From Amphiscolops sp. MND2022 (Eukaryota): a stretch of 64,000 nucleotides of DNA. Shown piece after piece: positions 1 through 60,214 of this stretch. The stretch is taken from NCBI GenBank assembly GCA_964187785.1, contig OZ076413.1, forward strand, positions 59,768,001 to 59,832,000, read 5' to 3'. The translations under genes and the position numbers were made by a program. Each line of letters starts with the position of its first letter. Within the stretch, counting starts at the first letter, position 1. Under the pieces are notes generated by a model, which was not told the DNA's origin, searched no databases, and saw only the letters and a list, made by a program, of their open reading frames with translations.

Positions 1-10
1 GGATTATCAC

Positions 11-5700: not shown

Positions 5701-7676
5701 ATACTTCCAGATGATGAGGTTGACGAAAATCAATTATGGCAAGAGAAACACAACGTACGTGAACAAGCACAAAATGAAACACATAATGAACCCGAAAATG
5801 ACGTTAATGAACTTCAACAATTCCACAAACCCACTTCCGGCCTAATCTCCTGTTCATCAGGGCACTTCAAAGACAACGCTCGAATTAGACTTGAACAAAA
5901 TAATGATGTTGTCCTCAGAAACCTACGAGCTAAACTCGAAGGTAACCCCTTCGACGAAAACGAATTAGCATCGGATCACCGATACCAACATTACCTCCAA
6001 AACATCACCAGAATCGAGATAAAACAAGAAGTCCTTACCCGTAGATACTATACGGATACAGGAATAATATCACACTACCAAATTCTACTCCCGAAACAGC
6101 TCCTGAAAGAATTCCTCCACGCCCTACATGGTCACAATTCTAACCACCCAGGAATCACAAAAATGATTCAGGAATCTCGACAAAAATATTATTACCCCTG
6201 TATAGCCAAATACAATAAAAAATGGGTAACAAACTGCCAAACTTGCATCCAAAACAAGCGCATTAACAATGACCTTCTCCGAACCGAACTCCTAAATTGC
6301 CCAGAATGGGATTTAGGGCCAGAGGACATTCTGCAAATGGACATCCTACCGAACCTTCCTACAAGTGGTGGCTATGACCATATTATAACAGCAATAGACG
6401 TCTTCTCGAGATACCTGTTTGCATATCCAGCAACCCGTATTAATGCAACAGCGGTCTCGAAAGTCATTATGGACATTCTATGTAAACACACCTACCTCTC
6501 AACAACCATTATACCAGACTTAGGAACCCAATTCAATGCTCATGAAATCGCTGGTGTGCTTGGAATTGAATTAAAACACGCTACCATGAAGCATGCACAA
6601 ACAATAGGTCTCCTTGAACGAACTCATGCCTCAGTCAAAACACACCTAAAAGCCGCCACAGGCGAGTTTAGGGATAACTGGCATAAATACCTTCCACTGG
6701 CAGTCCTTAATCACAACACGACATACCATGCATCACTTGGTTGTGAACCTTCAAGAGTGTTTCACGGACGTATACCTCATAATATTCTTGATTATAAACT
6801 TGGTTACAACCCAAATCCTCGATATCAACCGCAAACCGATATCGCTGAAGAAGTACAACGCCGAATGCAGATTCTCCTAGACCAAACTAAGAAAAATATC
6901 ATGCAGTCCTATCTTAGATACAAAGCCTACTACGATAGAAAAGCAAAAGCAGCCCCGCTGGAGACTACGGATTACTGCTACATTCTAAACCCAAAAGCAG
7001 ACACCCAAACGACTAAGATTCCGTTCCGTGAATTCAGATGGTGCGGTCCTTATAAAGTCGAAAAAGTTCTCCCTAACAACAATTATATAGTCAAAAGACT
7101 CGGCACCAATAAAACTCAGTTATTACACAGAATTCGCCTACGAAAATTTACACCGCAAGCACCCCTAGCAGACATCTTCGTTCGTGAAACGGACTGGCAA
7201 AAAGATGACCAGATGATAGTCTCACATGACGATCTATATGCCCAATCGTGGAATACGAACTTTGGCCCCAATCCATTTGAGGAAAGCCCTCATGAATCTA
7301 CACTCAATACAGACAAAATAGAATACGTTCCAATCGAAATACCTGAGCAAAACCGCCCCCCTCCCCGAATTCTTCAAAAAACAGCGGGGGGAGCCCAGTG
7401 GAACAAACCACTGCTCCAGAAGTGGAGAATAGAAATATAACCCCACAAGAAATTCCTGATGATACTCCAATTATAGAAGAAACCCATAAAAGTAAAAACA
7501 ATACAACTGAAATAAAAACCCCAGAAAATACCCAAAATGTTCCGAAAAACACACAAAAATCCCCAAAAAATTCACAAAATACCCCATTGCAAGAAGAACC
7601 CATAAAAACTCGTGGCGAAAAATACAACTTACGCCCAACTCCTAACCCCAATTACTCAGACTCATATAGATACTAA
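2779..7676 (+). pseudogene. pol: Pol polyprotein (PR-RT-RNaseH-INT), mildly disrupted; longest open piece 4444-7440
   Basis: Protease LIDTGAL; RT AQYVDDIG; RNase H MSDASF and YAKEFL; integrase HGHNSNH...CQTC, QMDILP, IIPDLG, GLLERTH; GPY motif CGPYKV. Nonsense at 3040-3042 and frame breaks near 3550, 3780, 4315 and 7385. Confidence 0.95.
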
Positions 7677-7878: not shown

Positions 7879-10830
7879 TTAGTTCTTCTTTTCCTTGGAC
7901 GCCTTAGATTTGCTCTTAGCAGCACTTCTTCCTACTCCTTCTTCCGAACAGCGGGAAACGGTAACAGAAACACGCCCCAAAGAAGGCCCTGTTACGGGGG
8001 AACTACTGGAACTGGTAGTTCTACTCTCACTAGGCGACGTCATGTCCAGAAATAAAGGCAAACCTTCCCCTCGAAGCACGGACTTCTTGTAGGATATCTC
8101 CAATTTTCCGAATACAGCACTGCGACGAACTTCACTCCCCTTGAGGAAATTCCACACCGAAAATTTCCTATCGCGAATTAAACTAGGTCCTCGTCCAAGT
8201 AATCTGAACACGCGACTGATAGTTTTCGGACTCCTGTATAAGCTGGAAACGTTGGGAACTGTAACATAAGACAATTGCAGACTCCTCACTACGGAACGGA
8301 AAGAATGATCATCTGATTCCAAGCCAGGAATCGAGACGTGAAACTTAGGAGGTTCGATGACAACAGGCGGCAGGCATAGACACGCATTTCTAAATAATTG
8401 AAGCAACTCAGGACGACTCTGCATTTCATAATGAGAAATGAGGAATTGAACCCAATCAGATCTGATAATTCCACTTTCAGCACGAAGTTTTATAGCGAAT
8501 GATCGGTATTGGCTCACAGCTTTAACCTTATTGCTAGTGGTCATCCATCCACAAGAAACAAAATAACTTGTTAGACTTTCGACAGCAGAGACATAGTTTT
8601 CCTCTGGTCCATCAAGTAAAACAGCATGATCGAATGATGAGAGTCTCAATCAGGCTAGAAGCTTCTTCGAGGGAGTACTGCAAACTGATCACACACTGGA
8701 AACAAACTGAAGTAAACACAAAGAAACAAAAACATCAGGAAAACGAAATTGACGATATAATACCTTGTGCAATTGAGGTAGTGAATGCAACCAGTCTTTA
8801 TCTAGGGCCGTCCTCAATTTCAGCAGGAGGTAATCGAGAATACTTCTGAAATCGTGTCTCTCGATAATTTTGGCAGTTGGTAATGCGAGACACCTCTCGA
8901 ATTCGTCTTCGCCAAAGTTGTTGATGATTATAGGCCGAGGATGCCCAGGTAAAGTCGTTGAGAGACAATGGCTGAGCCGCTCTCCTAACCCAATGAGGCT
9001 GATACATGGGGGCGCTGTCTCAAATAAACTAATGAATGAAGCAACAAGAGATAAGATCTTGCGAGGAATCAGGATTCCTCTTGGTCCAGTTCCAATGCAT
9101 ACCTGATACAGGACATTTCCTGACCAGAAACTGAGATATAAGGTGTTCTCGGTGGGATGGCTCATCAGGGACAGAGAATAGACCCCACTAGCATTTACGT
9201 TGGTCACACAATAGTTGAGCAATTCCGTGAACATGTGAGTGATGATTCCCTGAAAAGAAAACTACGTTCGGACTTGGTAACGATTGAATATGATATCATG
9301 ATTACTCAAAAACTTCTGGTCACATGAATGTCAAATACCTGAAGTAGTATTGTGGGATTGATGAAAATTGAGATCACTTACAAATATGCGGTAAGGACTC
9401 CAATTGAAGGTGATTGCTTGTCCTTCCCCGCCTGAAAATCGGTTGATTTCGTCATAAATGTCAGTCACGCAGGAAATGTCGCCCCCTCTGCGCAACCCGA
9501 TCTCGATGATACAGATCTGTGAGGAAACTGTTTCAGTGGGACTCTTGTCTGTTCCGAAATGTGGCAGTGAGTCTTGTCCTACCAATAGGCGAGAACAGTC
9601 CAATTGGGGGGCGATAGGATATGTATCCCTAGCGATTCTCTTCGCTCCTGCTAGAGCTAGACCCTGTAGTTCACACTCGTCTTTATCGTATAGTGCCATG
9701 CCCGGGGTTTCCATCCTAATTCGGTGTTCCCTAACCAGGTGTGATTCGGTTTTATAATGAGCCATTAACTCTAACACTCCTCGGCTCATAAGGGAGAGTT
9801 CAATTCGGCACACACGGCAACTCCATTTGTAAGGCGTCTTGTCTCGATTGACTGGTCCAGTAGCGGAAAACTTTAGGACAGGGTGCTTGCGAAGCATAGA
9901 CCATTTAAGTGAATAGCGAGGCCTCGGTCGTTTGTTGCAAATAACCGGTGCTTCATTGAGTTCTTGCTCTGAATGGGATATGTTAGGCCCACTATTAGTT
10001 GCATGCTGATCTTCCTCTGGATTACCTCTGGGAGGCTTTTGAAGTGTGTCTTCAACGACCGAGAAAGATATCCCCTGATCGTTTTCAGTTTCAGTCCCAC
10101 CGATGTAAGATTGTGGGAGTTTTTCGATAACGTTTGTTATGGCCACCAGCTCATTTCGTGTATTGTTGACACTCTGAACGTTAGGTCTGTGAACTTCAGT
10201 GGTTTCGGAATCAGTGGGTACCTCATCAGCTTTGTCGTTACTTTTGTTAAGAGAGGCATTATGTTTTTCTGGATCTAGATCAAGTTGTTCAACCAGGGCA
10301 GTTAGAGAAGGTAACAAGAATTGAGTCAACAGAGATTTGCTAGCCTGCTGTTTGGGTAAAGGAACACTAGTCCCTACATTCGGAGCAGTAATAACCTCAG
10401 GAGAAGTATCCATGGTCATAGCATTAACTCCAGATAAATGTGGTTCTACCAGATTTTCATGGATGGAGGCTAAATGTGGAGTATCCTCTTCTTTAGAAGT
10501 TTCTAAATCTTCAGGATTAATGGTAGAATCCAATAAATCAAAGTTAACTTGAGCCGGACTATGGACGATACCATCTGGATCAATTGTATCCTCAACTGTA
10601 TCAACAACAGTTTCTCCTTGGGGTTCTTCTAATTCAACTGCCGCACTGTCCGATGCAATAGTGGAGCTACCAATGGTGATAACAGAAATATGCTCTGGAT
10701 TCGCGGTGGGGCTTGGAACAGTAGGCTGTCCTGGTGGAATGACCTCCAAGGGTGTATAAATCTTGGTAGGGGAACGAACTGGTGATTTTTCAGTAGCCCC
10801 AAGTTCAACTAAAACAAATAAATTTGACAA
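7879..10830 (-). CDS. Antisense spliced cargo gene A: disordered N-terminus, BED-like Zn finger, degenerate hAT-transposase-like domain (one apparent frameshift near 8650)
   Basis: Three long minus-strand ORFs (9331-10830, 8689-9234, 7879-8649). In-phase GT-AG intron 9381-9250 (PYRIF|GIITH) and GT-AG intron 8763-8696. Zn-finger-like WSCRVC...MAHYKTESH. Colinear homolog in element B. Confidence 0.8.
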
Positions 10831-11504
10831 ATCTCACCAAGGGAGAAAACAAAACTGAACTCAGCTCTCTACTCTTCAAGAATTTTCTAATCCGGACGCG
10901 GTTTTAGAAAACATAAATTAGGCGGAAGTAGCTGAACAAATTTGACGGAAGTTGCTGACTTCCGTAAGAAAATCTGAATCAAAAGCATAATATACAAGAG
11001 TAGCTTATTCAAAACATCAGCCTGGCCAGCTGATGAATAAAATTTTACCGATCGGAAAACAAATCAGCAACAATGGATCTCAGAAGAAACTTAAAATTTG
11101 AACTTACGTGGCGACACAGAAGTAGGAGATTTGTAAAGTCCAAGGACTAATGAAGAATGTGTTTAAATAAAAATCCAACAAGTGATAAAAGACTGACTGA
11201 GTACTGGAAAAGAGGTTGAATAACTAGACTTATAATGGACTAAAACTGTAGACTAGACAATGTACGATATGACAGAAATTTAGCAATATCAATGGAGTAA
11301 AGACGTGGCGTATCAAACAAAAGGCCAAAAGCAAATGAACTTTAATTCGGCAAAAATGTACACATTTGAGCTGGACGCTGATTGGTCAATTAATCATTCA
11401 GTTTACTTCTGCCAGAGTGATTGACTGGTTGATTGACAACTTTCAAACTTATTCAACACGCTATAGTACAAAGCATACTTATTTCTGAATCACGCATGTA
11501 CAAT

Positions 11505-11717
11505 ATACGGTAACATGCGTATAAAGGGAAAACGAGTATGCGGCATCATACGGAAATTGTTGAAGAGAATATGCGGCATGGTACGCATCGAGCGATTACG
11601 AATATGCGGCATCATGCGGAATTCAATGAAAAAATATGCGGCATCATGCGGAATTCAATGAAAAGAATATGCGTCATCATACGCATTGAGAGAAGACGAG
11701 CATGCGGATACATGCGG
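11505..11717 (+). repeat. Degenerate 33-bp-period array of paired ATRCGG motifs
   Basis: Unit starts 11505, 11538, 11571, 11604, 11636, 11669, 11702. Most units have a second motif 10 bp downstream. Ten exact ATRCGG. Confidence 0.85.
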
Positions 11718-12483: not shown

Positions 12484-13506
12484 ATGAACAGTCTACAATT
12501 CAATTTTGATGAAGATTCTTTGTACTCACCGATATCGCCAGATGTCATTGACATATCCAGCGATTCGGACAATGCCTTTCCCGTCGCTCCTGGGGATGTC
12601 GGCCAGCTCGAAGAGAGGTTCCGAATAAACCCAGTCGGAAGCAATTTGATGTCAGCTTTCTTGGGCTCAACATTAGCTTCATTATACCCTGACGCAACAA
12701 TGACAGCAGATCAAGGAGAAGAGATGACAACCACGGGGACAGAACTTGAAAAAGACCTGGCTGAGCTCATAGCGGACCCACCAGAAGCTCAAATGGATTC
12801 ACCAGGATCGTTTGTGGCCAGCGAGTTTGAAGAGGAGAATCTGTTCCCCTGGACTGTGAGTAACACCCAGAATACGAGCGTAAACAGCTTTGGTCGTCCG
12901 ATTGCCGCCATCCCTCCAAATGTGAGAGCGGACCGTGAAGCAAGAGGGATATTACCACGACCGATACCCAATTATCCACCCAACCATAGTCCCGAGTCTG
13001 CAGCTTTTCAGCAAACCCAGGTTAGGGAACCTATGGAACGAAATAGGCAAGATAACAATATGCAACCAAATGGTGGGAATCATAATGCTGTCCAGGGATT
13101 CAACTTGTCGCCGATGCTCTTCCCTGTTCCTTTGAGGGGGACAGCAGCAGATACTTTTCTAGCTCCTGTACAGCCCCTGACACAGATAGGTTTTCCGTTT
13201 AGTGCGACCCATAGCACGAACCTTATCCTAATCCCTGCTCAAGAAAGACAGAGTATCAGGCTCTTGCCAACAGTCATGCCCAACGTTGCTGGGTATTGTG
13301 ACATTTGCGGAAAATGCTACGACCAGATAGCATTGGAGACGCTTGGTGAGTACCTGGTTGCGACTGAGTACGAGAATGAAACAGTCAAAGAACGGGCAAT
13401 TCGATCAAGAGCCTTTATTCATGGCTTTGAGGCCTCACTGTTCCTCTTCAAAAACGCGGGACTGTCACATCCAGCTAGATGTGATGGTTCCGTGGTGCAG
13501 CAGTAA
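12484..13506 (+). CDS. Sense orphan accessory ORF of element A (340 aa)
   Basis: Uninterrupted ORF; acidic, Pro-rich, disordered N-half with DVIDISSDSD; C-terminal YCDICGKC and a helical segment. No family recognised. Confidence 0.7.
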   Translation: MNSLQFNFDEDSLYSPISPDVIDISSDSDNAFPVAPGDVGQLEERFRINPVGSNLMSAFLGSTLASLYPDATMTADQGEEMTTTGTELEKDLAELIADPPEAQMDSPGSFVASEFEEENLFPWTVSNTQNTSVNSFGRPIAAIPPNVRADREARGILPRPIPNYPPNHSPESAAFQQTQVREPMERNRQDNNMQPNGGNHNAVQGFNLSPMLFPVPLRGTAADTFLAPVQPLTQIGFPFSATHSTNLILIPAQERQSIRLLPTVMPNVAGYCDICGKCYDQIALETLGEYLVATEYENETVKERAIRSRAFIHGFEASLFLFKNAGLSHPARCDGSVVQQ

Positions 13507-13746
13507 AGAGGAACGAGTGATGAGACCCTTGATACAAACATTTCAAAACTCTAAAAGACTCATTTCTAAACAATCTCTTTTGATGAAGTCATGTAATTTA
13601 TTTGTTTGCCTTGTCTCTTAAATTTATTTAAGGGTTCGATTGTAGTCCTTAAGGTGCTTCTTTGATTGCATTAAACCCATTAAATAATAAGGCACGTGCT
13701 GAATTGTTACATAAGATTGATTAAGTCTACCATCATCCAAATCATC

Positions 13747-13992
13747 ATACATCATGATACGGTATTTTGAACATCTGATATGCGGTAAGAAGCAGTTTTA
13801 CAATATACATCATGCGGCATTATGCGCAAAAAGGTATTCAGCATATACGGCAACATGCGGTTTTAGATTTGTCATTCATGCGGTAACATACGCTTTTTAC
13901 TATTATCACTATTCATTATCATGCATTTTGAATAGGCTTAGTTATACGTTAACATACGGTATTAGGTGATGTGTATATGCGGCATTATACGG
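13747..13992 (+). repeat. Second 33-bp-period ATRCGG array, in the putative U3
   Basis: Unit starts about 13747, 13780, 13812, 13845, 13878, (13911), 13944, 13977, with paired motifs 10 bp apart. Nine exact ATRCGG. Shares AGGCTTAGT..ATACG..GTATTAGG with 11750-11790. Confidence 0.85.
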
Positions 13993-14415
13993 TTTTCGTC
14001 CAAAATGGGAACTTTTGAATGTCATGTATCTATGCATCATTTGAACAGTGTTTGTAGCACCTAATATATCATTTTGCAGCATTTTCCTAGGGTCTTTAAG
14101 CTTTGTAGTCATAATTCCGTGACTATTGGAAAGCTATATATAGGATGAAGTAATGTTGATGTCATTCTATTTTTATGATTCCAGGACCCAATGATGTTTA
14201 GAAAAAGTGCTTGTCATCGTTTTATTTTTTGATTGAAGAAAAGGTTTGTAATAGAGACTCAGTTGAAAAATAACCTTCTCAAAGTGCAGTTGACCCAATT
14301 CACTGAACCCTTTAAAACACTTCCTGATTTGCTTTCCTGACTTTGGATTGTTTTTCAATTTGGATTCTAATTCAAATTCTTCCCCAATAAACCTGATCGT
14401 TTTGATTGAGCAAAG

Positions 14416-14979
14416 ATGGGAAACAAGAGAAATAGAAGATCGAGAAGACTAGAAATCCCGTCTCCTGAAAGAGAAGGGAATAGGACTCTAGTTGATTCTC
14501 CAGAGACAGGTATTTAACTAATTCTAACTCAAATGTTGATGAGAATTTAGGTGGGCTTAACCTGGGAAGTCAACTTGTTGAACCAAGCCAAACTAGTTCT
14601 GAAATACAAGCTTGGACTGAGATTTTCGAACGAAAAAACAATGATAGGATAGAAAAAATGAGAGAAGAAATGGAGAATAAACTAGATACTATTCTGAAAG
14701 AGATAAAGTCAAACAGGAGCCAATCTACAGTAACAAACCCCAGGTCACAAGTTAACGAAACAGAGGATATGCGACCGTCAGGATCCAGGAGTAAAGAACC
14801 TATTGGAGTTCATGCATCCAACATAGAAAATTCTGAACCTGAAGATGAGGATAATCCTATTAGAGCGTCCAAAATGACGGAGTTAAAACATCCTGCGAAA
14901 CCTTTGTTTCGGAGCGAGTCTGATATAGACGTAACTATACATTCAGATGAAGAGTCCGATATAGAAGAGGATTATCACA
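14416..14979 (+). pseudogene. LTR-encoded Gag N-terminal extension, 3' LTR copy (about 188 codons, one frameshift near 14515)
   Basis: ATG 14416 (MGNKRNRRSRRLE...). The frame from about 14515 runs open to the LTR end (...EEDYH), the same frame that enters gag at 1698. Confidence 0.75.
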
Positions 14980-18782: not shown

Positions 18783-19260
18783 GAAAAAACAATCCGGGAC
18801 CGGCCTAAGTCGGCGCCATATCTAAGGCTCGAAAATAGCAAAAGGATTTCAAAGTGTCAAAGTCACAGCAGTCAAAAAAGTAATCAGTCACAATCAATAA
18901 CAATGAAAACTCAACCGATTTCACCTGACAGGCTTCGGGCAGAAAAACAAAGAACGTACCTGAAAAAAAAGAATTGGAAGCGGAGGAAATGTCAAAAATT
19001 GAAGGGGGAGCCTTTGTTGAAACAAAAAAAAATTGAAAAAAAGTCGCATAGTGCCGAAAAAAAGCGGGGCTAAGGGGGATCCTTAGTGTGTTTTCGAAGT
19101 TCTGGACGTGTTTTGTTTTTAGACGCGCTTCTGAGGTTCGAGTGTTTTGAACCTCCATAGTTCAAGTTGTTGAACAAATGAAAAAAGTGGACCTTACGCG
19201 AGTAAAAAAACTACCCACTGTAAGAGTCGGCCACATTTTCTACTAAAATGCGCCGACTAA
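18783..19260. mobile_element. Non-autonomous repeat, Helentron/HINE-like, copy 1
   Basis: AGTCGGCGC at 18808 is inverted to GCGCCGACT at 19250-19258. End hairpin AGTCGG...CCGACT. Matches 27590-27670 and 28150-28195. Confidence 0.55.
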
Positions 19261-44441: not shown

Positions 44442-46710
44442 TGTCACGACCCGCACCCGGTCGGTGTTCCTACTGTCACGAAGGAATACATAACTGCAAC
44501 AAGGGACTTGGTCATGGGAGAAACTTTTAAAACGTAAGATGTTTAAATTCTACTTAGAGTAGAGCTAAATAACAACCGAAATTTTCACGCAACAAAATAG
44601 ACAGAAGGACGACGTAACGTTTGGTTTGGTCATTTCCAACCTAATGAAACTCCCGGCCTATTGACTTTCCGCGTGACCTTTTTTCACTTCCGGCCTGGTC
44701 GACAGAAAGTTTGCATTCCAATCTAAATAACAAAACAGAAAATAATCTTAAAATGAGAAATTAGTTCTTTGATTCCTCACCCTGGAACGAAAATACCGAG
44801 ACAAAAATTAATCCCGTGGTCAATTCCGAGCTCATACGCTCTAAAATGAAAAATACATACAAAGTAATATAGCTGAGTATACTAGAATAGCTGTCAAAAT
44901 TCACTTAAAATGCATCGGGGCAATTTAAACAAATAATCACAACGTTATTGCTGCGTCAATCAATAAGAGTCCGCAAAGAAAGCTTTATACTCTTACGAAC
45001 CAATAGCAATGCTTCACAGCTAAAAGAGTTTTCCTTACCGCCTTCTCAACGAGATAGCGACGCTGCTAACCAGCCTATATTACCGTGCTCAAAATAGAAC
45101 GAACGATTTAATGACGTGACAATAAATCATTTTGGAATGAACTTTACCAGCAAGTGACGTACCAGCTACGTCACGCAGTTGGTCAGCAACAGTCCACTAA
45201 AATACACACGTCACTGCTGCGTCACAGCTGAAGGTTGAAAATGAACGACAGTTTATCTGTACCGGCTGAAGTGAGAAAATTTTAAACACTTTTGTGCATT
45301 TTGCACACTTTTAGGGAAGCTGTACTGTAAAATAGGAAACCAAATGATCTCAAACTTCAGTGTGTGGTAAAAATCCTTTTTTGAATCGCTACAAAATCCA
45401 AACGAAACGAAATGATTGGAATAAAAATTTGGAAATTACGTTGACCAAAGGAAGCTACAATCTCATTTAGGATGGCATTATTTCAATGGAAATTGCTCAT
45501 TTTTTAAATTTAACATCACAGTGCATGACGTAAGGTCAACGTGTTTTCCTCGAATGGAAAGGTGCAAAATTGCTATTAATTCATTGATACACATGTAATT
45601 AGAATCATTTGCTTTTGCTTTTGCAGTTTTATATTTTTGTTTCACTACTGTTGTAATACTGTGTTAGTTTATACTAAAGGAAGCCTCATGATCTGGCGAA
45701 CTTATGCTCATGAAAGTTCTTTATTATTACGAGTGACTTTCGTCAGACAACAGACAATGTTGTAAATTTTGAATATGTACATCTCAGGCCTCTTAGCATC
45801 TTTTTCCTTATTATTCCCTCAATCTCAAATATGAAATTGATATATTTTTTCGTCTCAATTGCGAGGCTTATATTTTGAGTGTCATGATTTATTCAACAAA
45901 ATTCGATTCCCAAATTCCAGTTAGTTGAACAATTGTTGACGCAGGCGTGCCTTTGCCGCTAAAACAACAGGCCGACTTTTCTTTTGCCGTAATTTTAACT
46001 CTCAAACAGGAAGTGATTAAGGATGAACAAAAATGTTTTCAGAAATAACGACGTAAGCATGGCGCATCTCGGAATTCAAATAACTGATTTGGGAACGCAG
46101 GGTTGAAAAAATCTGAATCACTCAAGATTCCTTATGAACAAACGCGATTTTTAGGATACCTAGGAATTTTTAGGTGAGGAACAAATGATGCTAAGAAGGT
46201 ATAAAGATGTAGACTTTTAGAGTGAGTTCAGTTAATGTTTCTGTTGTTCAACCTGAATATTTGTCGTTTGCAAAACGTAAAACAAAATATTTTCTTCGAA
46301 GAATGCACTATTACCGAAGACTTTCATTCTAAAGATGACAACTAGAAGTCAGTAAAGGAAAACAGCTGAGGAGCTAGTTTCTAGAGACGCAGACACTCCC
46401 ATAACTGGAGTCAATTCTTAGGAAAACATGGTAGAATGTCCCAGTAAATCACCCAGAGTGCAACCTGAAATTTTAGACGAGATAAAAACGTCGCTTAGAA
46501 AAGAGATTATGTCTGATCTTTCAAAAATTCTTACTGAAAACCAATAAGAAATGCAAACATTATTGGCACCTACCACCAAAATTCAAAGTAACCACCTTAG
46601 CGTTGAAAACTCCGATTCTGAAACGGAAATTGCACTTCCTGCCATCACTTCTACATCCGTTAAAAATAAGGCGACCATGCGTAAAAACACCCTGACAGTT
46701 AGTCGTAACA
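44442..46710 (+). repeat. 5' LTR of element B (2269 bp)
   Basis: Direct repeat of 57977-60214; followed immediately by the PBS. Confidence 0.95.
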
Positions 46711-47740
46711 TGGTGACAGGAGTCCTTAACGATTCCACGAATCTGGGGAAAAAGAAAACACGCCCACACCGTCCACAACGCCTGCCACCCAATGAACGTC
46801 CAACAACATCGAGGATACAGTTCGCACCACAAACGGACACCCAACAACTGTCCACCTTACCCCCTTGCCAAAACGGCTTACAGCATCACTACTAGTCTTC
46901 GATGGTAAGTCGGAAAATTTCGAACTCTTTGAAGACCTATTCAGAAACTATATTAAGGTGTATCCACACCTAGCCGAGACACAATAAACAAACTACTTCC
47001 ACTCACTCCTTACTACGGGGCAATGCACTCCAAGCATACTGCAATCTGGATGACGCGAAAGAAGATAATCTCGAAGAGGTAATTACGGCATTCAAACGCC
47101 GTTTTGGAGATTTCCAATCGTCCGCCAAGGCTAGATGTGAGTGGGACGCGCTACATTTCGACCCAACCAAACAAAAACTCCAGAAATTTCTGGATGTATT
47201 GCAAAAGACTGCAAAAGAAGTGTTTGGTTCAGAGGCACAAAAATTGATCGACCGAGCGATATACGCAAAAATGCCGGACCACGTCAAAAAGATCCTCAAT
47301 CGGGCCTACCTAGAGGACAAACCATATAATGATATAGTCCTACACCTCGAACGGGAGATGCGTCTCAATGGACTGGGCGCCCCTGATGAAACAACATTAG
47401 TACCACTAATTTCGGTTGACCCAGCCTCACAGGAAGTCAAGAAAGAACCGAATCAGAGAGGAAATTGCTTTTACTGCGGCAAAGAGGGCCACTACAAAGC
47501 ACAGTGCCGTAAGCTGAAAAAATATAGGTACTACGAGATTGAAACGCAAAATGGCGCCTCCAAAACAACTGAACCCCGAAACCGAAAGGTGACACTTGCG
47601 GGAAAACCCACAAGACAGAAAACTGCTGGAATTGTGCAAACGCGGCAAACGACCCCAGAAAACGACGACACGAGTTCGCAATACCCACAAATCAAATAGC
47701 TGACAAACCAATCCCGACCATAGAAATTCAGTCAAAAAAC
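46335..47740 (+). pseudogene. gag: Gag of element B, including the 125-codon LTR-encoded N-terminus; disrupted
   Basis: ATG 46335 is in frame with the ATG formed at 46710 (MVTG). VFDGKSENFELFEDLF, HLEREMRLNGL, CFYCGKEGHYKAQC. Several stops and frameshifts. Possible slippery AAAAAAC at 47734-47740. Confidence 0.88.
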
Positions 47741-50700
47741 TACCATCGCCGCGCCTACGCTTCGGAGAAACAGTAGACGCGAGGGCATATACAATGGAAG
47801 ACCCCCAACCAATACGAGGAGGACGATCTCACCGAATGCAACGAAGAGCCAACCCAGGACTGGCAACGACTCTGGAACGTGGGCATGATCCTCAATGCCG
47901 GACATCCGGATGACCCCAAGCCACTCCCCACATGGATAACGGAGTCACCCGACAGTTACGCCACATTAAAACGCCCACTACCCGAATCTAAAAATGACAT
48001 GATATACGTTTACGACACAGACTACAGGTGTGACCCCCGGGACGAACCAGACATATACGACACCAACTCCCTTTCATTCAAAATCGATGTACAAAACCCA
48101 ATACAATCAGAAAAAGAAATAATACCGCTAGCTACTCCACCCTCATCAATATTAAAAAACACGAGAACCACTCTCATAACACCAGTAATGGTGACGTCCA
48201 CACCAATAGTTGCGGAGAACATCATCTGCATAGAGGACAAAACGATATTGTCACGACAAGCGAGACAACAGAGAGAGAATACTCTTTCTCCCCCATCACT
48301 AACACAAACTGCACCCACCTCTTAAGCACCAAACGACAAAGAGAAAACAACGGAGTGTCCCACATCACTACCCGAAGATCTCGATGTCATTAAAGAATTT
48401 ATCCAACACGACAAGGACGACGACTACATCCCATTACTATCGGCAATAACACTAAAGAAGAAATGGCGAATGCTTTTCTTACCCCTGGAATTCCACGAAG
48501 TCAAAATTGATGCACTCGTAGATTCAGGTGCATACGTCAATGCCATCAGCGAACGAGACGCAAAAAAAGGACATGAAGCCCCTCAGTGTATCATCCACAA
48601 AGCACCGCCTCCTCCCTTTAAGGTAGAATACGCCAACGCCGCTCGAACAACCTATAGAAACCTACACCATGAAATTTCAAATTGGAGATTATAACTTTAA
48701 GAAACCTTCATCGTCATGACGAAAACGTCAAACCTATCATAGGACTGGCATTCCTACGAAAACACTGCGCTGTACTTGACACGGCACAGGGCATAATCGA
48801 CTTCCCCAAAATACACATCACAATGGCGGTGACAGACGAAATGCAAAATTGCAACCTCAAACCTATCACAGTCCGATCAGAGAATGAACACACCATCCCA
48901 GCGCAGGCCACACGCACCATCTAGGCGTCAATTCCTGTAAGCAACGACCATCCAATACAACCTCTGCCACAGTTTGACGAAAACGCAAAACTCATAGTGG
49001 CCGCAGCTATAACAACCGCTAGAGATAAAAGAGTCGCAATCAAGATAGCTAATACAACCGACTTCCCTTACACCATCATAGCAAATACCAAACTAGCTGA
49101 ACTGCAAATCCATGAACCAGAAACGAAATCTATACGACCAGTCGATAGTGCAACGCTAAATCTCCTGACCGACCACGACGATGTAGTAACGTACGTCAAT
49201 GCTCTCATGAAGATAGACCGTAATGAAAAAAATGACACCAAATTCTGGTTCCCCACACCTGACAACCCTGGAACTGAATCAGAACATACACCCATACAAC
49301 AGAGAATACTCCGAGGACTGAGAGAACTTGAAGTCTTCGAAAAACTCAACCCCAAAGAAAGCGATGAATCACGAAACAAATTTCTATCAATGTTCGATTG
49401 GGATGATTCCCTGAAATCTGGAGAAAATCCTGCAAACCTCGAATCCATCATCGTGGAATTCAACGACATCTTCGCAAGACACAGACTAGACATCGGAATG
49501 AACACACAATTCAAAATCAGCCTAACGCCGAATGACGACAAACCAGTCTACACCAAAACCTACCAGTTCATATCAACCTCAAAGGTGATCTCAAAGTAGA
49601 ATTGGCCCTCATGCACCGGTATGGTATCATTACGACCCTACCTTTTTCCAAATACGCCAGCCCTATTTTCACACAACGCAAACCCAACGGCAAGCTGAGA
49701 TTGCTCGTCGACTTACGAAAAATAAATGCACTCATATCTGACGACTACATCAATAACAACCACCCAATCAGCACCCTCACAGATGCAGCACAACACCTAG
49801 CGGCAAAACGACTGTTCTGCAAACTCGACTGCTCCCAAGCCTATCACTGCCTCCAAATGGCAGATCAAAGGTCAGTAGAACTACTTGCTTTCAATCTTGC
49901 CAGCAGGACGTTCGCCTATCGCAGGTTAGCTCAGGGACTAAGCAGAGCCTTGTCACCATTCTCCAGTTTCATGCGTGAATACCTCGACACTGTCATTAAA
50001 TAGACCAATGCACACAGTACGTAGACGACATTGGAATTGCCGTCAACTCTCCAGAACAACTTATTCAAAACATCAGAGCAGTTTTCAAATGCATCAGAAA
50101 AGCGGGACTAAAACTGACAATCGAAAAATGCCATTTTGGAGTGACCAAAGTAAAATTTCTCGAAAGAAGCATCACCCCTGACGGAATTGCACCGCAAGAT
50201 CACAAGGTCCAAGCATTCCTTGCCAATTACCATTTGTGTACATGTTTTCCGCAGAAGTTGTAAATCAAATACCTAATACTAGTGTAAGGAATCCTTTTAA
50301 CGGGGTTATATTTTAACAATCCTTGTGAATTGTATAACTTTTATTGATAACACGTATACAGGATCCTCCGTTTTCACCAATTATCAAAAATCCTTATGTT
50401 CGACGAAATTTTAAAACATTGAAATAGATAATGATAATACAAAAAATAAAACATAAGGGGCCAGTGAAATCTCTCTTATGAAGCGTTTGAGTATTGTTAA
50501 TAAATGTTTGAGGCTCTTGAAAGTTGTGTCTTGTAATGTGCAAAAATCTGCTTCCCAAAGTTGAAGAAACAAGTCCAAAAATACAATGGATTCGTAAATT
50601 ACTACAGAAACTACATACCCCGACTTTCAGAAAAACTAATAGGTATGTATGAATTAACTAAAAGCAGATGCCAAAATCACCATATTGGAAGAACTCGTCG

Positions 50701-53228
50701 ACAACTTCAAAGATATCAACACCAGTTTGGCAGGGGCCTGAGGATTAGCACTACGACAACCGATAGCAGGAAACCAATACGTCCTCATGACGGATGCAAG
50801 CTTCCGAGCATCCGGATATGCACTCATGATAGAAGAGAATGACGAAAAGAATATACTCTCAAAGCAAAAAACTTTGGCCCCAGTAGCTATCGGATCACGC
50901 CTTTTCTCTCCGTCACAAATCAAAATGTCAATATATTGCAAGGACTTCCTAGCAATATATCATGCCTTCCTTGAATATAGCCACATTCTATGGGAAACCA
51001 CAATACCCACACTTGTATTAACAGACAACAGATCAGTAACCAGAATTTTCTAAACGAAAACGGCGCCACCTACCCTCTGGAATGCCTGTGACCACGTATT
51101 TCAATTCAACTTCCGCATCATGCACGTAGCAGGATGTCAAAACACAGCAGCGGGTTTCCTATCCAGATTAGAACTAACGCCCAAAGAAAAGATACAACTT
51201 AAAATCCGTGACGACATATTAACGTCACCGATAGACGTTAACCGCCAATCGTCAGATGTCGCGGATGAAGAGCAATTATTCTTTTTACCGGATGAAAAAG
51301 AAGAGTCAGAACAAGAAATATTTGCCCGAAAACAGCTCAACAGATCACGAGCACAAGAAGAGAAAGAACAACAGAACCTAAACACCAAAGTCACAGAAAT
51401 AATCAAACTGCCACTCACTTCAGCAGTCTATACTTTTGGAGCCATTAAAGAAAACGCCCGCATACGAAACGAACACGACGCAGACCCCCTACTAAGGCAC
51501 TGAAATCACGCCTCCTATTACACGAAGAACATGATAAACACCTTTTAAATACGGAACCAAGAGGACGAAACCTATTGAGACATGCAGAAAGAATCATCAT
51601 GAAAGACGGAGTCTTCATGAGGAAATACTATAGAGAGGACGGAACAATTACGCACCACCAAGTCCTAATACCAAAACACTTAATAACAGAACTCCTAAGC
51701 ACACTACATGGCAAGCCAAACAAACACCCCGGAATACCGAAAATGATACAGGAATGCAGAACAAAATACTACCACCCCGGCTTGGCAAGGAAAATCCGGG
51801 CCTGGGTAACCAAATGCCCAGACTGTATTGCAAACAAAAGAATTGTTACGCAACAGATACAACCAAAGATGATTAGCAAAACCGAATTTACTCTAGGTCC
51901 AGAAGACTGCCTAGAAGTAGACATCCTACCAAATTTACCGCCCTCAAACGACTACAAACACATCATAAGGCTGATGGATGTTTTTGCACGATACCTGTTT
52001 GCCTACCCTACCCAAGGTATGACAGCAAAAACAGTAGGACGCTGCATCATCGATGTAATGACCAGGCATTGTTATCTACCAACAGTCATACAATCGGATA
52101 AAGGTTTACATTTCAGATCAGAAGTAATAAACCAAATACCAAAAACGCTCGACATTCGCATAAGTCACGCGTCAACAAAACATGCCCAGACCATTGCCAT
52201 ACTAGAGAGGACTCAGGCAACACCCAAAACCTCTCAAAATATCAACAGGCGAACGAAGATCGATGTGGCACAGATACGTCCAAATAGCAGTTTTGAATTA
52301 CAACACCAGCTATCATGAAAGTCGGGGCTGCGAACCTATGACGGTGTTCCATGGCAGGGTACCCTACAATATATTGGACATAAAACCTGGACTTAAACCA
52401 GGGTGGAACAGAAATCCCGACGAAGAACTAGCGGATAAATTACATAAGCAAAAAGTAGAAATCCACCAAAAAGCTAAAGAAAATCTTATGCAATCATACC
52501 TAAAATGCAAACGTTACTATGACAGAAAAGCGACTGCGACACCACTAAAAATAAATGACTACTGCTACGTCCTAAACCCGAACGTAGACAACCAATCAAT
52601 GAAATTCGCATTCAAAGATTGCATTTGGAATTGTCCCTACATAGTAGTAAAGACCCTGTCAAACAACAACTACGTCGTGAGAAGAACGGACACTTGATAC
52701 ACGCAAACCCTCCACAGAATTCGCCTAAGGCTATATGCGCCCAATCAACGATTACCTGACGTAACAGCCAGACCGGAAAAATACCTTCCAGATCCAGAGG
52801 TAAAAACAACCCACGACGATTGGTACGCACAAGCTTGGGGAACAGAATTCGGAGATGTACTGTTCGGACGATCGCCGGAAGAACACACCGAAGAGGCTAC
52901 AATAACAGAACTTGAAGACCATGACGAAGCAACAGCGCAGACGGAGTCGGTTAAAACAACCGAAAACGAAAGTCTAGATGAAGATAAAACATCCTCCATC
53001 AACAACAATTCGCTCAATTTGGATGTCAGTAATAACCCTTACATCATGTTGCCACCGCCTTTAGAAAACCCCGTCAAAACCCCCGAATTACCAGCTATAG
53101 TCATCGGATACAACCCGCGAAAAATCGGAAGATACAACCTACGCCCTAACCCAAAACCCAAAGCAAACCCTGATTTTAGAATGATTGACTCACTAACGAC
53201 GGAAGACAAACGTCAACCTCACTCATGA
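47734..53228 (+). pseudogene. pol: Pol of element B (PR-RT-RH-INT), multiply disrupted
   Basis: LVDSGAY; LVDLRKIN; CKLDCSQAY; QYVDDIG near 50020; MTDASF; GPEDCLEVDILP; IQSDKG; ILERT; terminal RYNLRPNPKP. Confidence 0.95.
50231..50549. other. ~319-bp AT-rich insertion interrupting RT of element B
   Basis: Splits the expected AFLAKLRFPK codons (TTAC^GCTTCCC); no TSD or terminal repeat seen. Confidence 0.75.
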
Positions 53229-53393: not shown

Positions 53394-56300
53394 CTATTTC
53401 AACCTATGAAATACATCAGGGTCCACTTTTTTTACAATTTTCTTCTTCTTACTCTTGAAAGAGGCGGGCTGTTTTGACCCACCCTGACTATTGGTCTGAT
53501 TTCCTCCTTTTGACGCTGCAGCTTGTTGTTTCTTCTGCCTCACTACTGCGCTCAGGCCAACGTCCACTCTCCATTTCGAAGCACTACTCACACTACTGCC
53601 TGTCCCGCTACCTCCAGAACTTTCACCAAGTTAGATAAGACAAATAGTTTTGTTACTCTCTGTATAGAAAGTCTCGCCAGCTCTACGTCGCTCCTCAATA
53701 AAATCCACATAGAGGTTCTTGTGACGATGAACAAACTCATCATAACTAGTAGCACAGAATCTGGACCATTAATCGAAATCTGCAGTCACAAAATTCTGCC
53801 CCGGCAATAGCTCCACGTACTGTATCCAAAGTAGGGATAGTGAAAAAAGATTGATGCGCATACCCCGGGCACAAAACATATGATTGCACCAACAGCAAGC
53901 AATCATGGAAAACTTTTGGGTCGATTGCACAACCTTTCAACTCCAACGTAACAACAGGATGGATACTTTGAGGTATATTAATCACCAGGCAACATAATTG
54001 GAACACGCTGAGCAATCGATGCCTCGACTGAAAGCTGAAGTTTTGCATCAGAAAACTAATAACATCAGGGATATCGCAGGCAGAACGTCCAGAACCCACA
54101 TGTTGACGCCGCTTCTCTACCACATAGCTACTGTACTTTTTAACAGCTGCTTTACTTTCGAGATAACATCACACTTCCTCAGTAACGCGCACAGGTCGGA
54201 AAAGAGCCCAAACACTGTACTGTCATCGCCTTCAAGCATTATCTCAGGGCAAAAACTATAGAGACCTCTTGAAAATTCTGAAGAAGTACAGGGTCTCTCC
54301 AGAAGCAGATAAATAAACCTATCGATGAAGTCTTTGCAACGGGTGCGAAACTCTTTAACATCACTCGTTGAAAGTCGTACTCAGAACGTCCTTGGAGATA
54401 CTTTGCGAAGTTACAATGAACTGAAACACAATATCATAACTACGACGCAACATGAACGCAAACCCAAGAGATCACCCCAATACTCACATGTGTCAAGCAA
54501 CAACTGCAAAAACCCAAAACGAAACACGATGAGTGTGTCAGCGAAGATGTACCAATCTGTCTTACGCAACTGAAACGAACACAACTAAGTGACTGAAAAT
54601 TAAAAAAGAAGGAACAACAAGAGAACGACCAAGACTAACACTGTCGACCCTATCCTTGACATGAAGGAGATCAGTATTCCGGATATATGGTCGAATTGAA
54701 GGCCACAGTTCAGTCAAATCTGACACCACAGAACGAAGGTTACGGAAGGGAACAGATCCTTGACAAAAGCACCTTCGCAACAATGTTTTGTCTTCATTCC
54801 AATCTTCATAGAAGATTGCTCCGCATCCGTAAAATAACAAAGAGAGTGACAACCTCGATCATGCCAAATACATCTTGGTGTGCTTGATGGAACACCTCCA
54901 GAAACAGATTTTCGCCGAAACTTTGCTGGATAGCGAAACGACGCCCATCAGCCCGCTCGTCGCCAAGAACCCGCAGCAATGAAAGACTGATACCACGAAC
55001 TGCCACAGGAAGTTGCTGACCCTCCACACTTTCGATGACGCGCGACAATGGTTTCAACTCTGACAACGGCATTGGGCGTTCCAGGCTTTCGCTGCCCACG
55101 CACACTTTCTTCAGGTGACCATCCTCCCAGAAGACGACGTAACATCGCTCACAAGAATCGTCCTTCTCGAACTGCACACTATAGTCTTTATCACTAGAAG
55201 CACCAGCAAGGACAAGACGTACCACGCGTGGAGCGAGACCGTGACACAACAAGGCCTGGAACAGAAAACCTCATGAAAGATCCAAAAAAAAGAAGAATAC
55301 CACAATACAATAACAAGAATCAAAAAGGCCATCAAAGTCAGAAGTAATTATGAAACGCACAAAACTACAACTAAACAACGTTTCCGAACGGCTCCAATTT
55401 AGTTTGAACTCAGGCTCACGCGTTCCCAGCGCAACACAAAAGTGACTCCAGAGTCGGCGGACCAAGTCAAAGTCACCACCACTGCGCAGGACATCACAAA
55501 GGCTTGAGCTCAGGGTCATAAACGGAACTTTTGAGTCTACTTTCGAATATTTCGGCAGTAAATCTTCAAGGAACGGGTATCCTTCCGCAAGATCCTCAAT
55601 AGGTCGCACGCTATACTCAGTCCGTTGTTCAGCAGTCAGTTCCGTCCGTTCCATCAGACTATTGTAAATTGGGATGCCCATGTGAACCCTGTATGTAACG
55701 TCACGGACCCAATGCCCCTCGGAACCAACATGTCGTTTGAATTCAGTTGCCCCCCGTGTCGCCATCGACACGTCGCGCCGACAAACTTTGCAAAAAAAGA
55801 AGCGACCAATGCCACTCTTGGGGCCAGACACAAATTCGGGGTACAAGGGGTCGAGACTCAGCATCTGTTTACGCAAATAGTGACGACTACTATATTTGCG
55901 CTCTTTCTGTTTGTCCGCAAACTAACTCTCCACCTACTGAGTCAATTCGTTGAATCCTAGAACAACACACAATCCATCCAATAAAAAACGCCGAAGAGGA
56001 AGACAAAAAAATGTGACTACTCACCAGTCTGGATCGTACGGACTGTACGACTCTCAACGTCCTCAACGACTCGTCGACTAAGTGTGGCAACGTCCTGAGG
56101 ACTTAATCCAGTGTGACCAATGGCAGTCGCAAATGCGTCATCAGAACCTGATCACCAAATGAGTAACACCATGTACGAAAATAGACGGAATGAAGAATAA
56201 ACAAAACTAACTGGTCCACCCATTCCGTAATGCACCAGCAAGTAATGGCGTCGCATCTCCAGTCTGATCAGGGGGTGTTTTGAAAGACACTGAACGTTTG

Positions 56301-57035
56301 GGAAAAGGAAACACCAGACCACCCAAAATCACAACACCCATGACAATCCTCAAGGATACAACACTACAAACGGCCCCCCTCCCTTTACAAATATCTAGTC
56401 TCTTCCCCATTTTACCAACCCACGTACCTTCTTCGTCGAGAGACGGGGAATCAGTCTCGTCTTCACGAGACTCTTCGGTACCCAGATCATCTTCACAGGA
56501 CTTCCCAACAACGGAACCATTTCCACGAGATTTTTCGACTCCAGAGTCATTTCCAAGTAGCCCTTCAACGCCGATAAACCCTGCTGGAGGGGCCTCGATG
56601 GCAGCTGAACACGAAGCAATGTTGGATGCCAAGATACTATCCGGAACATAAGGGGTAGAAAACCCGAATGATCGATCACCGAACACAACAGAAGCCGCAT
56701 CACGAACGTCGACTTCTGGCACAGCAGTGGCAGTGACACTGGCATCAGGTTGAGGTACTGAAAATCAAGATACGGTTCAGACGCGTCAGCAAATCTGGTA
56801 AGACAAAAAGGGATGATCACCCAATAATAGTCCAATTACCCATGGAAGTCGGAAAAATTTTACCAACCTGTCAAAGGATGAATCTCAATATCAGTCAGAC
56901 GAACATCATCGTCCGTCCAGGCGACGTTAGTTTCGTTACAACTAACAAAACCACCAGAAACACGAAATCTCATCGTCCATCGTGAACACGAAAGCTTCAA
57001 AACAATCTGAAAAAATAAGACACAAAGGAATTTAC
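53394..57035 (-). pseudogene. Antisense spliced cargo gene B, homolog of cargo A; partly decayed
   Basis: Zn-finger-like FFCKVCRRDVSMATRGATEFKRHVGSEGH. Blocks YVVFWEDG..VCVG, SFGENLF, LYSFCPEIMLEG and DVISFLMQNFSFQSRHRLLSVF align with cargo A. GT-AG intron 56024-55957; acceptors ending at 55256, about 56150 and about 56757. Confidence 0.82.
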
Positions 57036-57342
57036 CATGCCAAGAAAGACCAAAATAAAAGATAGAAAAACAGTCATGACGTCATATTGACGCAGTCCTA
57101 AACGAAAATCGGTGACGTCATAACGACGCCATTGAAGAGAAATGAAGGTCATACACCACTCCATATTGACCGATCAAAACGAAAAAGAAAGCAAAACGCT
57201 TTCACAATGAGAATGGAAAAAGAATTGGCCAATTAGAAACCACTTTTTTATCACCGAAGAAAGAAAAGTCAAACGGTCAATTGCCGTTCAAACGACTAAA
57301 AGAATTAGTCTGATCAACAATTCCTTCAGGAACAAGTACAAC

Positions 57343-57924
57343 ATGAGTAAATTAACATCTTATCACCACCTCGTCGTCGATATTTTGTCAGATGAAAAGG
57401 AAAATTACGCGCACAGTACACCATTAGAAACTCTACCACTTAACATGATAAAGACTTTAAATTTGAGTGCAGAATCAACGAAGGCTGCACCCGGAAGTGA
57501 AAGAGATAAAAAGAATTATCGGCTTCTACGTTCGAGTCAGATCCGTCTCCCAGTAAATTTGGCGTCGATATTTTTCCCTGACAAGATCATACCGAACCAA
57601 GACAAAGAAGCATTCACAGTGGAAGGCCACACTGTAGCAGAAACTGGAACAAGCTACTACGAAGAGCCAGATTCGCCACGACGATTGCCGCCCCTACAGC
57701 CTGCCCCCTTTTTAAGAGATATGACAAATAAATCCCCAGCTAACTCATTTCCTCCAGAAAAGGCAGGAAGGCTAAACGACCTAGATGAACCTTCTGTAAA
57801 AAATAGAGAAAACTTGGGGCATCTCCCTAGACGAATCTACCAAAAACTATACCCTGGCCGGACGAGGATGCAGCTTCACATCAAGCGAACTACGCAGAGC
57901 ACGCAAGCAGCCCGTGCGCTGTGA
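57343..57924 (+). CDS. Sense orphan accessory ORF of element B (193 aa; may be frameshift-truncated)
   Basis: Same position as 12484-13506 in element A, just before the 3' LTR; contains VVDILSDEKE. No family recognised. Confidence 0.5.
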   Translation: MSKLTSYHHLVVDILSDEKENYAHSTPLETLPLNMIKTLNLSAESTKAAPGSERDKKNYRLLRSSQIRLPVNLASIFFPDKIIPNQDKEAFTVEGHTVAETGTSYYEEPDSPRRLPPLQPAPFLRDMTNKSPANSFPPEKAGRLNDLDEPSVKNRENLGHLPRRIYQKLYPGRTRMQLHIKRTTQSTQAARAL

Positions 57925-57976: not shown

Positions 57977-60214
57977 TGTCACGGCCCACTCCCGGTCGGC
58001 GTTCCTACTGTCACGAAGGAACACACAAATGCAACAAGGGACTTGGTCATGGGAGAAACTTTTAAAACGTACGATGTTTAAGTTCTACTTACAGTACAGC
58101 TAAATAACAACCGAAATTTTCACGCAACAAAATAGACGTAAGGACGACGCAACGTTTCGTTTGGTCATTTCCAAATTATTGAAGCTTCCGGCTTTTTAAC
58201 TTTCCGCGTGACCTTTTTTCACTTCCGGTCTTTTCGTCAGAAAGTTTGCATTCCAATCTAAATAACAAAACAGAAAATAAACCTAAAATGAGAAATTAGT
58301 TCTTTGATTCCTCACCCTGAAACGAAAATACCGACACAAAAATTAATTCCGTGGTCTCTACGGAGCTCATACGATCTAAAATGAAAAATACATACAAAAT
58401 AATATAGCTGAGTTTACTAGAATAGCTGTCAAAATTAACGTTATGGCAGCGTCAATCAATAAGAGTCCGCAAAGAAAGCTTTATACTCTTACGAACCAAT
58501 AGCAATGCTTCACAGCTAAAAGAGTTTTCTTTACCGCCTTCTCAACGATATAGCGACGCTGCTAACCAGCCTATATTACCGTGCTCAAAATAGAACAAAC
58601 GATTTAATGACGTGACAATAAATAATTTTGGAATGAACTTTACCAGCAAGTGACGTACCAGCTACGTCACGCATTTGGTCAGCAGCAGTCTACTATAATA
58701 CACATGTCACTGCTGACTGCTGAGTCACTGCTGAAGGTTGAAAATGAACACAGTTTATCTTGTACTGGCTGAATTGAAATTTTTCTTAGCACTTTTGTGC
58801 ATTTTGTACAATTGTAGGGAAGCTGTACTGTAAGATAGGAAACCAAATGATCTCAAACTTCAGTGTGTGTTAAAAGTCCTTTTTTGAATCGCTACAAAAT
58901 CCAAACGGAATGAAATGATTGGAATAAAAATTAAGAAATGACGTTGACCAAAGGAGGCTATAATCTCAATTAGGATGGCATTATTTCAATGGAAATTGCC
59001 GTTTTTGTCCTATTTAACATCACAATGCATGCCGTAAGGTCAACGTGTTTTCCTCGAATGGAAAGGTGCAAAGTTGCTATTAATTCATTGATACACATGT
59101 ATTTAGAATCATTTGCTTTTGCTTTTGCAGTTTTATTTTTTTGTTTCACTACTGTTGTAATTTTGTGTTAGTTTATAATAATGGAAGCCTAATGATCTGG
59201 CGAAAATATGCTAATGAAAGTGCTTTAATATTACGAGTGACTTTCGTCAGACAACAAACAAAGTTGTAAATTTTGAATATGTACATCTCAGGCCTCTTAG
59301 CATCTTTTTCCTTATTATTCCCTCAATCTCAAATATGAAATTGATATATTTTTTCGTCTCAATTGCGAGGCTTATATTTTGAGTGTCATGATTTATTCAA
59401 CAAAATTCGATTCCCAAATTCCAGTTAGTTGAACAATTGTTGACGCAGGCGTGCCTTTGCCGCTAAAACAACAGGCCGACTTTTCTTTTGCCGTAATTTT
59501 AACTCTCAAACAGGAAGTGATTAAGGATGAACAAAAATGTTTTCAGAAATAACGACGTAAGCATGGCGCATCTCGGAATTCAAATAACTGATTTGGGAAC
59601 GCAGGGTTGAAAAAATCTGAATCACTCAAGATTCCTTATGAACAAACGCGATTTTTAGGATACCTAGGAATTTTTAGGTGAAGAACAAATGATGCTAAGA
59701 AGGTATAAGTATGTAGAATTTTAGAGTGAGTTCAGCTAATGTTTCTGTTGTTCAACCTGAATTATTGTCGTTTGCAAAACGTAAAACAAAATATTTTCTT
59801 CGAAGAATTCACTATTACCGAAGACTTTCTCTTTAAAGATGACAACTAGAAGTCAGAGAAGGAAAGCAGCTGAGGAGCTAGTTTCTAGAGACGCAGACAC
59901 TCCCATAACTGGAGATAAGTCTGAGGAAAACCTAATAGCAGGTCCCAGTAAATCACCAAGAGTGCAACCTGAAAATTTAGACGAGATAAAAACGTCGCTT
60001 AGAAAGGCGATTATGTCTGATCTTTCAAAAATCCTTGCTGAAAATCGAGAAGAAATGCTAAGATTATTGGCACCTACCACCAAAATTCAAAATAACCACC
60101 TTAACGTTGAGAACTCGGATTCTGAAACGGAAAATGCATTTCCTACCATCACTTCTACACTCGTTAAAAATAAGGCGACCATGCGTAAAAACACCCCGAC
60201 AGTTAGTCGTAACA
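57977..60214 (+). repeat. 3' LTR of element B (2238 bp)
   Basis: TGTCACGG...GTCGTAACA followed by the TSD. Confidence 0.95.

Follow-up and report, generated by a model that had tools for sequence, protein, structure and literature searches.

An intron-containing antisense gene, probably derived from a hAT transposase, is inherited as an accessory gene of Gypsy retrotransposons in Amphiscolops sp.

The window analysed here is a stretch of 64,000 nucleotides from Amphiscolops sp. MND2022 (GCA_964187785.1, contig OZ076413.1, positions 59,768,001 to 59,832,000). It contains two Gypsy elements, A and B, both of which have TG...CA LTRs, a PBS and 5-bp target-site duplications (TSDs), and both of which carry an additional antisense gene (the "cargo") behind pol. 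Their features, in window coordinates, are as follows.

4276..7440, + strand: element A pol, with RT, RNase H and integrase
7879..11108, − strand: A cargo, exons 10808-9382, 9249-8764 and 8695 onward
11505..11716, − strand: phased array in which the A-type 15-bp motif occurs six times, immediately upstream of the CCAAT box of the cargo
12484..13506, + strand: element A second accessory ORF, with a VIDISSD motif and a CxxC near the C-terminus
13463..14979, + strand: element A 3' LTR, in which the A-type 15-bp motif occurs five times at 13812-13991; TSD ATTAC
44442..46710, + strand: element B 5' LTR (TG...CA), followed by the PBS; 5-bp target-site duplication CGAGC
46974..53228, + strand: element B gag-pol, with zinc knuckle, protease, RT, RNase H and integrase; stops and frameshifts break the frame
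53394..54420, − strand: B cargo last exon, helical, predicted transposase insertion/C-terminal part with a Lys-rich tail
54488..54569, − strand: B cargo mini-exon of 82 nt, its length and phases matching the A type
54640..55255, − strand: B cargo exon with a predicted RNase H-like core, without a conserved catalytic Asp; single frame change near 54818
55256..55375, − strand: B cargo intron common to the A type, phase 0, six codons after a conserved Trp
55376..55956, − strand: B cargo zinc-finger exon, C-x2-C...H-x5-H, BED-like
56025..56980, − strand: B cargo 5' exons, predicted at 56980-56868, 56757-56212 and 56147-56025, encoding an acidic/low-complexity N-terminus
56981..57342, no strand assigned: likely divergent promoter of element B, between cargo and sense ORF, with TGACGTCA and CCAAT boxes; function putative
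57343..57924, + strand: element B second accessory ORF in the env position, with an N-terminal VIDISSD-like motif
57977..60214, + strand: element B 3' LTR

The LTR pair of element B is 91.6% identical. The boundaries of the B cargo 5' exons are predictions based on splice signals and comparison rather than on RNA, and the start that is conserved among four B-type copies lies at 56980, not at 57035 as given in a preliminary description of this DNA. Both cargo copies of the window are decayed. That of B has an internal deletion and frame changes in its last exon, and that of A is missing ~1.15 kb mid-gene (i.e., the mini-exon, the large intron and the start of the last exon) as well as ~120 nt at its likely start. 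With both copies broken, the window alone hides two further shared introns and the 82-nt mini-exon.

Several other features were seen in and around these elements. The RT of element B is interrupted by a ~320-nt AT-rich insertion (50222-50543). A 1.67-kb unit of element A, made up of LTR end, PBS and gag, occurs as four tandem copies, 97-99% identical, at window 1-3084 and L071:6381-10000; these reflect either real unequal recombination or an assembly artefact. A third Gypsy pol fragment at 28377-30812 (+), 55-63% identical to A, has no cargo match behind it within the window; it is either truncated or from a cargo-less lineage. Bel/Pao-type element ORFs (Peptidase_A17, DUF5641 and integrase) lie at 61032-63788 (−), and a family of short dispersed direct and inverted repeats at 18771-19063 and 26950-28360 is probably a non-autonomous DNA element.

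The preliminary description had paired short motifs of the two cargo genes as colinear antisense homologues. All of these are present in the minus-strand translations and in identical order, and the alignment of the A and B cargo is significant, with hhalign E-values of 1.9e-12, 2.2e-14 and 1.1e-21 for three exons and nearly no gaps. The relationship can be detected within the window (tblastn of the A exon against window B gives E 6e-10, 0.014 and 1e-4 for three pieces) and with outside copies: profiles made from other copies, with the window copies left out, gave E 3e-9, 9e-7 and 1e-6 for A against window B, and 1e-10, 7e-17 and 1e-13 for B against window A. On real B members, the A profiles score a minimum of 22-31 bits, whereas shuffled controls reach no more than 6.8 bits and reversed ones no more than 0.6.

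The two types also share gene structure. The intron proposed to fall right after NWSxxxxx in both types lies six codons after the conserved Trp, and it begins with GT in 52 of 53 copies and ends with AG in all 37 copies where the search pattern located an acceptor (16 were not located). The window B acceptor is indeed the AG at 55257-55256, and the donor, suspected to be mutated, reads TT at 55375, the sole exception among the 53 copies examined. This intron is common to both types, as had been claimed, but it is not the only one: A and B have three intron positions in common, and the A cargo has one intron more than the B cargo. The 82-nt mini-exon was located in 17/20 A loci, always with flanking AG and GT, and in 30/36 B loci, 27 of which have GT at the same point. 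These conserved splice sites lend indirect support to a putative antisense transcript from a promoter of the cargo's own.

The third shared intron (after the mini-exon) is absent from loci L068 and L070, where the frame is open through, and the donor at this point is likewise missing from L088. The state of L068/L070 is an apparent intron loss, and the absences together suggest recombination with a spliced antisense copy. Separately, the first intron of the B cargo (window 56867-56758, −) is far more conserved than its neighbouring exons in four B copies and is a possible cis-element; the A-type first intron has conserved blocks as well, and Rfam searches of two loci gave no match beyond one chance-level hit. 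One copy, L058, has its cargo last exon and part of integrase duplicated internally.

A search of the 1.07-Gb host genome found at least 150 matches for each cargo type; we sampled 20 of the best 150 for A, 20 of the best 150 for B, and 16 of 238 for two divergent queries. RT, RNase H and integrase lie on the opposite strand directly behind the cargo in 56/56 sampled homologues (40/40 and 16/16). The preliminary description had considered that cargo homologues might mostly occur as free hAT elements. This is not what was found, as none of the 56 is a free copy outside a Gypsy element, with the caveat that the loci were chosen for diversity among top-ranked matches, a kind of sample that rare free copies could escape. 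When six of these were followed to both ends, each proved to be an LTR element (16-16.6 kb long, identity within the LTR pair 97.7-100%). A 5-bp TSD is present in 7/7 testable elements, the window copies included. The cargo elements have the Gypsy order gag, PR, RT, RNase H, IN. Inverted repeats flanking the cargo were at chance level in five of the six elements and borderline in one (12 bp, 4/100 shuffles), in a scan that covered inverted repeats and from which old TIR remnants could be lost.

A profile of the last exon matched 976 representatives at 50% clustering. The best host-genome matches of two divergent representatives are just 29% and 38%, so these two likely come from other genomes. 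Scans of IMG/VR and JGI metagenomes gave no relative, and searches for longer relatives (alignments A4 and A3) gave none among 8000 candidates each, which is weak evidence.

A and B had been described as distant families with unrelated LTRs. Their LTRs are without significant similarity (best match 27 nt, E 0.42), but the elements are sister lineages: they have the same PBS start and LTR start, and their median identity is 81% in RT. It falls to 58% in integrase and 18-20% in the cargo exons, with pol at ~50% over 1575 aligned residues. The cargo is the fast-evolving part, and the same is seen within A, where RT is 94% and the cargo 60-63% identical at the median. Despite this rate, the cargo is under purifying selection, with dN/dS of 0.05-0.34 in bins with dS 0.1-1.5, compared with 0.03-0.06 for RT. 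Pairwise dN/dS gave no sign of positive selection, being below 1 in all bins, although dS saturates.

Phylogenies of pol and cargo, built from 39 loci having all five pieces, agree at depth but not above it. The A/B split is recovered in both, whereas among 21 last-exon splits with strong support 7 contradict RT, and pol-cargo distances within A correlate at just 0.32-0.37, compared with 0.90 between cargo exons. A case in point is L069 and L070: gag-pol is 95% and the LTR start 93% identical, yet the cargo is only ~55-62% identical (RT dS 0.10, cargo dN 0.35-0.45). The cargo is therefore exchanged as a cassette between pol backbones, presumably via template switching, and this is why the cargo and pol trees conflict below the deep splits. 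With complete linkage in the sample, three shared introns, selection and a common deep split, the earlier view of an old, selected, lineage-wide module is borne out.

These results also bear on a quite different account, in which a free hAT element inserted independently into A and B and was kept by chance. Cargo divergence that far exceeds that of RT, and trees that disagree at shallow nodes, would both be expected of it. However, the cargo sits in the same place and orientation in 56/56 homologues, the deep splits agree, purifying selection acts on a protein without catalytic residues, and no TIRs rise beyond chance in five of six elements (one borderline). Independent nested insertions are thus already largely refuted, and we consider them very improbable.

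The inherited cargo is probably a hAT-derived transposase, an identification that we hold with good but not full confidence. Pfam searches of the cargo pieces gave nothing that passes the cut-off, PF04195 included, and PDB sequence profiles gave nothing credible, so the argument comes from fainter signals in three segments. For the zinc-finger exon, the nearest Atlas clusters are DUF659, Hermes DBD, zf-BED and ZBED1 at 0.75-0.79 (below 0.9 and thus a lead only), with zf-BED itself at Atlas 0.76 and, by Pfam, at only E 0.11 in 1 of 32. The middle exon has the predicted fold helix-b1-b2-b3-helix, and Foldseek ranks Hermes transposase first to sixth (best E 3.5e-3, prob 0.84-0.87). This model has a pLDDT of 60 and superposes on Hermes at TM 0.26-0.29 and rmsd 13, and VIA-align lists generic RNase H-like folds, without Hermes in its top 50. 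The helical last exon (pLDDT 74.5) was uninformative on Atlas, with low recognition; against Hermes residues 368-609 it aligns over 172 residues with Z 4.4 and rmsd 8.4, where unrelated proteins tie. Together, the three weak leads agree with the hAT domain order and suggest such an origin. The protein may resemble one hAT subgroup in particular.

Transposases of the hAT type have a DDE triad and a CxxH motif. The zinc ligands of the cargo (Cys41, Cys44, His61 and His67) are kept in 95-100% of 55 copies, but there is no Asp column conserved across both types, no acidic residue common to both at the end of strand 1 or after strand 4 (triad positions being placed from the predicted strands of the middle exon), and no conserved CxxH, the middle exon being without a conserved His. 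The cargo protein is therefore predicted to bind DNA but not to cut it. No active hAT relative was found among 10 other window ORFs and two sense ORFs.

Alternatively, the module came from a DDE superfamily other than hAT or from a ZBED-like gene of the host, or it is a still-active nuclease with an unusual site. The structural evidence for hAT is weak, many RNase H-like folds score alike, and the helical exon has some conserved acidic columns. We nevertheless regard this alternative as improbable: three segments independently indicate hAT in the correct order, and the strand-1 and strand-4 positions hold no acidic residue common to both types.

A candidate target for a DNA-binding cargo protein exists in the A lineage. 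The large introns of A types contain 32-33-bp repeats with variable flanks and a constant core, a 15-bp motif made of two CG(C/T)AT half-sites 10 bp apart. There are 3-8 copies in each of 20/20 A loci, 101/101 matches lie inside the large intron (where shuffling predicts 0.004 each), and 49 of 81 spacings are 32-33 bp; as the motif was derived from these intron repeats themselves, the independent clusters are those elsewhere. In 4/4 full A elements, these lie in the U3 and immediately upstream of the CCAAT box of the cargo, on the same strand. The motif is absent from B types in four full elements and 20 loci, with single matches in 5/16 others, and scanning four B elements de novo gave no equivalent. 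TGACG-type boxes are present in both types. CpG observed/expected over whole elements is ~0.8-1.1, which makes demethylation in the style of VANC unlikely.

The binder of these arrays need not be the cargo. The motif is kept while A zinc-finger exons are just ~63% identical, so a host factor could be responsible, and the cargo would then act by protein contacts or on other targets, e.g., as a silencing-factor decoy or a dominant-negative against hAT or rival subfamilies. A motif constant across divergent A cargo would fit this, as would TGACG-type boxes common to both types and a cassette swapped while the LTR start is unchanged. Confinement of the motif to the A type speaks against it, as do near-invariant zinc ligands and a phased direct-repeat layout that suits a multimeric zinc-finger protein. 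We rate host transcription factor sites as an unlikely explanation, though one to be taken seriously.

The position of the arrays allows one more account, in which the dead transposase serves integration as a scaffold, in nuclear import or as a tether of the pre-integration complex via arrays in the cDNA ends. U3 arrays lie within ~330-660 bp of the element end, like hAT subterminal repeats (PMC10368747), and nuclear import has been proposed for plant antisense ORFs (PMC7264820). But arrays of equal or larger size occur in the cargo promoter and intron, a long way from the ends, and B types have none, so we find an integration role rather doubtful.

Our preferred reading, to which we assign a probability of about 0.5, is that the cargo is an inherited Gypsy accessory gene, likely a disarmed hAT transposase, and likely a DNA-binding activator or anti-silencer of its own element. 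A DNA transposon gene would have entered the common ancestor once, in antisense. Antisense introns would escape splicing from the genomic RNA and hence survive reverse transcription, which may account for their persistence despite an RNA intermediate. The zinc finger and fold have been kept and the acidic triad and CxxH have not, consistent with binding without cutting. The cargo would be transcribed from an internal promoter and spliced, and its protein may reach the nucleus via the Lys-rich tail. There it would bind the phased repeats in the U3, its own promoter and its own intron, and the acidic N-terminus could act as an activation region, creating positive feedback that would sustain transcription against host silencing.

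A stronger form of this reading is that the hAT transposase was domesticated by the retrotransposon as an anti-silencing activator, with arrays built in LTR, promoter and intron and the cassette traded in an arms race. In either form, escape from host silencing, or competition among subfamilies, would be the reason for fast divergence and exchange. The stronger form is tentative and, on balance, we would not bet on it. The activator reading fits poorly for B types, which have no arrays (element B of the window included), and L069/L070, with shared pol and LTR start (93-99%) but very different cargo, fit poorly with tight cargo-LTR co-evolution. If true, however, it would take the VANC kind of system beyond plants and across transposon classes, with one class of transposon, and not the host, domesticating another, and it may help explain the gigabase genome.

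Among known systems, the cargo falls into the Gypsy class of antisense additional ORFs (aORF-3R). It resembles Retand TRP28/PF04195, Grande gene23 and RIRE2, which are present in nearly all copies of their elements, in lying antisense between pol and the 3' LTR (PMC7264820, PMC11963269), as all 56 sampled cargo homologues do. Those plant ORFs also have their own promoter, nearby tandem arrays and a proposed DNA-binding regulatory role (PMC7264820, PMC11963269), of which the promoter and the role are putative here. The cargo is not TRP28: it lacks PF04195 and has several introns, a recognisable zinc finger and a predicted RNase H-like fold. The plant antisense ORFs are described in PMC7264820 as without similarity to other TEs and of unknown origin, and that source treats as an open question where antisense accessory ORFs of LTR retrotransposons come from and what they do. 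In the present case the origin can probably be read, as a DNA transposase, and hundreds of copies have an intact gene structure. Accessory cassettes recombine between pol backbones, and one lineage (A) offers a candidate target motif, so that the regulatory hypothesis can be tested directly, using the zinc finger and the 15-bp motif.

As in hAT proteins (Hermes, ZBED), the predicted order is zinc finger, RNase H-like strands, helical insertion and C-terminal part. Unlike them, the cargo lacks the conserved catalytic Asp and CxxH, and no TIRs or 8-bp TSD were seen around it. It travels only within its LTR element and does not constitute a functional hAT transposon. The BED fingers of hAT proteins bind short repeated motifs cooperatively, as documented for Hermes (PMC10368747). 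Transposases have been described as intrinsic activators that turn into regulators by losing DDE, in a preprint whose available portion does not mention LTR or retrotransposon (bioRxiv 10.64898/2026.08.24.746577).

Possible functional parallels are VANC of VANDAL and TnpA of Spm. They share with the cargo a fast-evolving accessory protein and short motif arrays in introns and upstream non-coding regions (here in the A type), and tandem repeats in introns and upstream regions are the targets of VANC (PMC5735166). TnpA is also transposase-derived, as the cargo likely is (bioRxiv 10.64898/2026.08.24.746577). However, these are plant DNA transposons with their own proteins, acting on DNA methylation, whereas here a retrotransposon is likely using a foreign transposase, CpG is not depleted, and the activity is putative. 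The PMD, orchid AlkB and planarian Burro captures in Gypsy elements are likewise stable extra genes retained through subfamily diversification (PMC9289625, PMC6431247). They involve different proteins, and the accessible parts of those two papers describe no hAT-derived multi-intron antisense gene. Our literature search, which covered open-access texts, found no report of this combination.

These elements have further coding features beside the cargo. A second accessory ORF lies in the env position, in sense, in 8/8 full elements examined, and both the A and B types have an N-terminal VIDISSD-like acidic motif, which we take to resemble a SUMO-interacting motif. The A-type ORF has a CxxC and is 58-61% identical between A subfamilies; neither the A nor the B ORFs matched a Pfam family. 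The gag frame of A types (L031, L037 and L046 families; window 14496-14979) is open from within the LTR, with ~93 codons of this frame 61-65% identical between subfamilies, and an ATG overlaps the LTR end and PBS.
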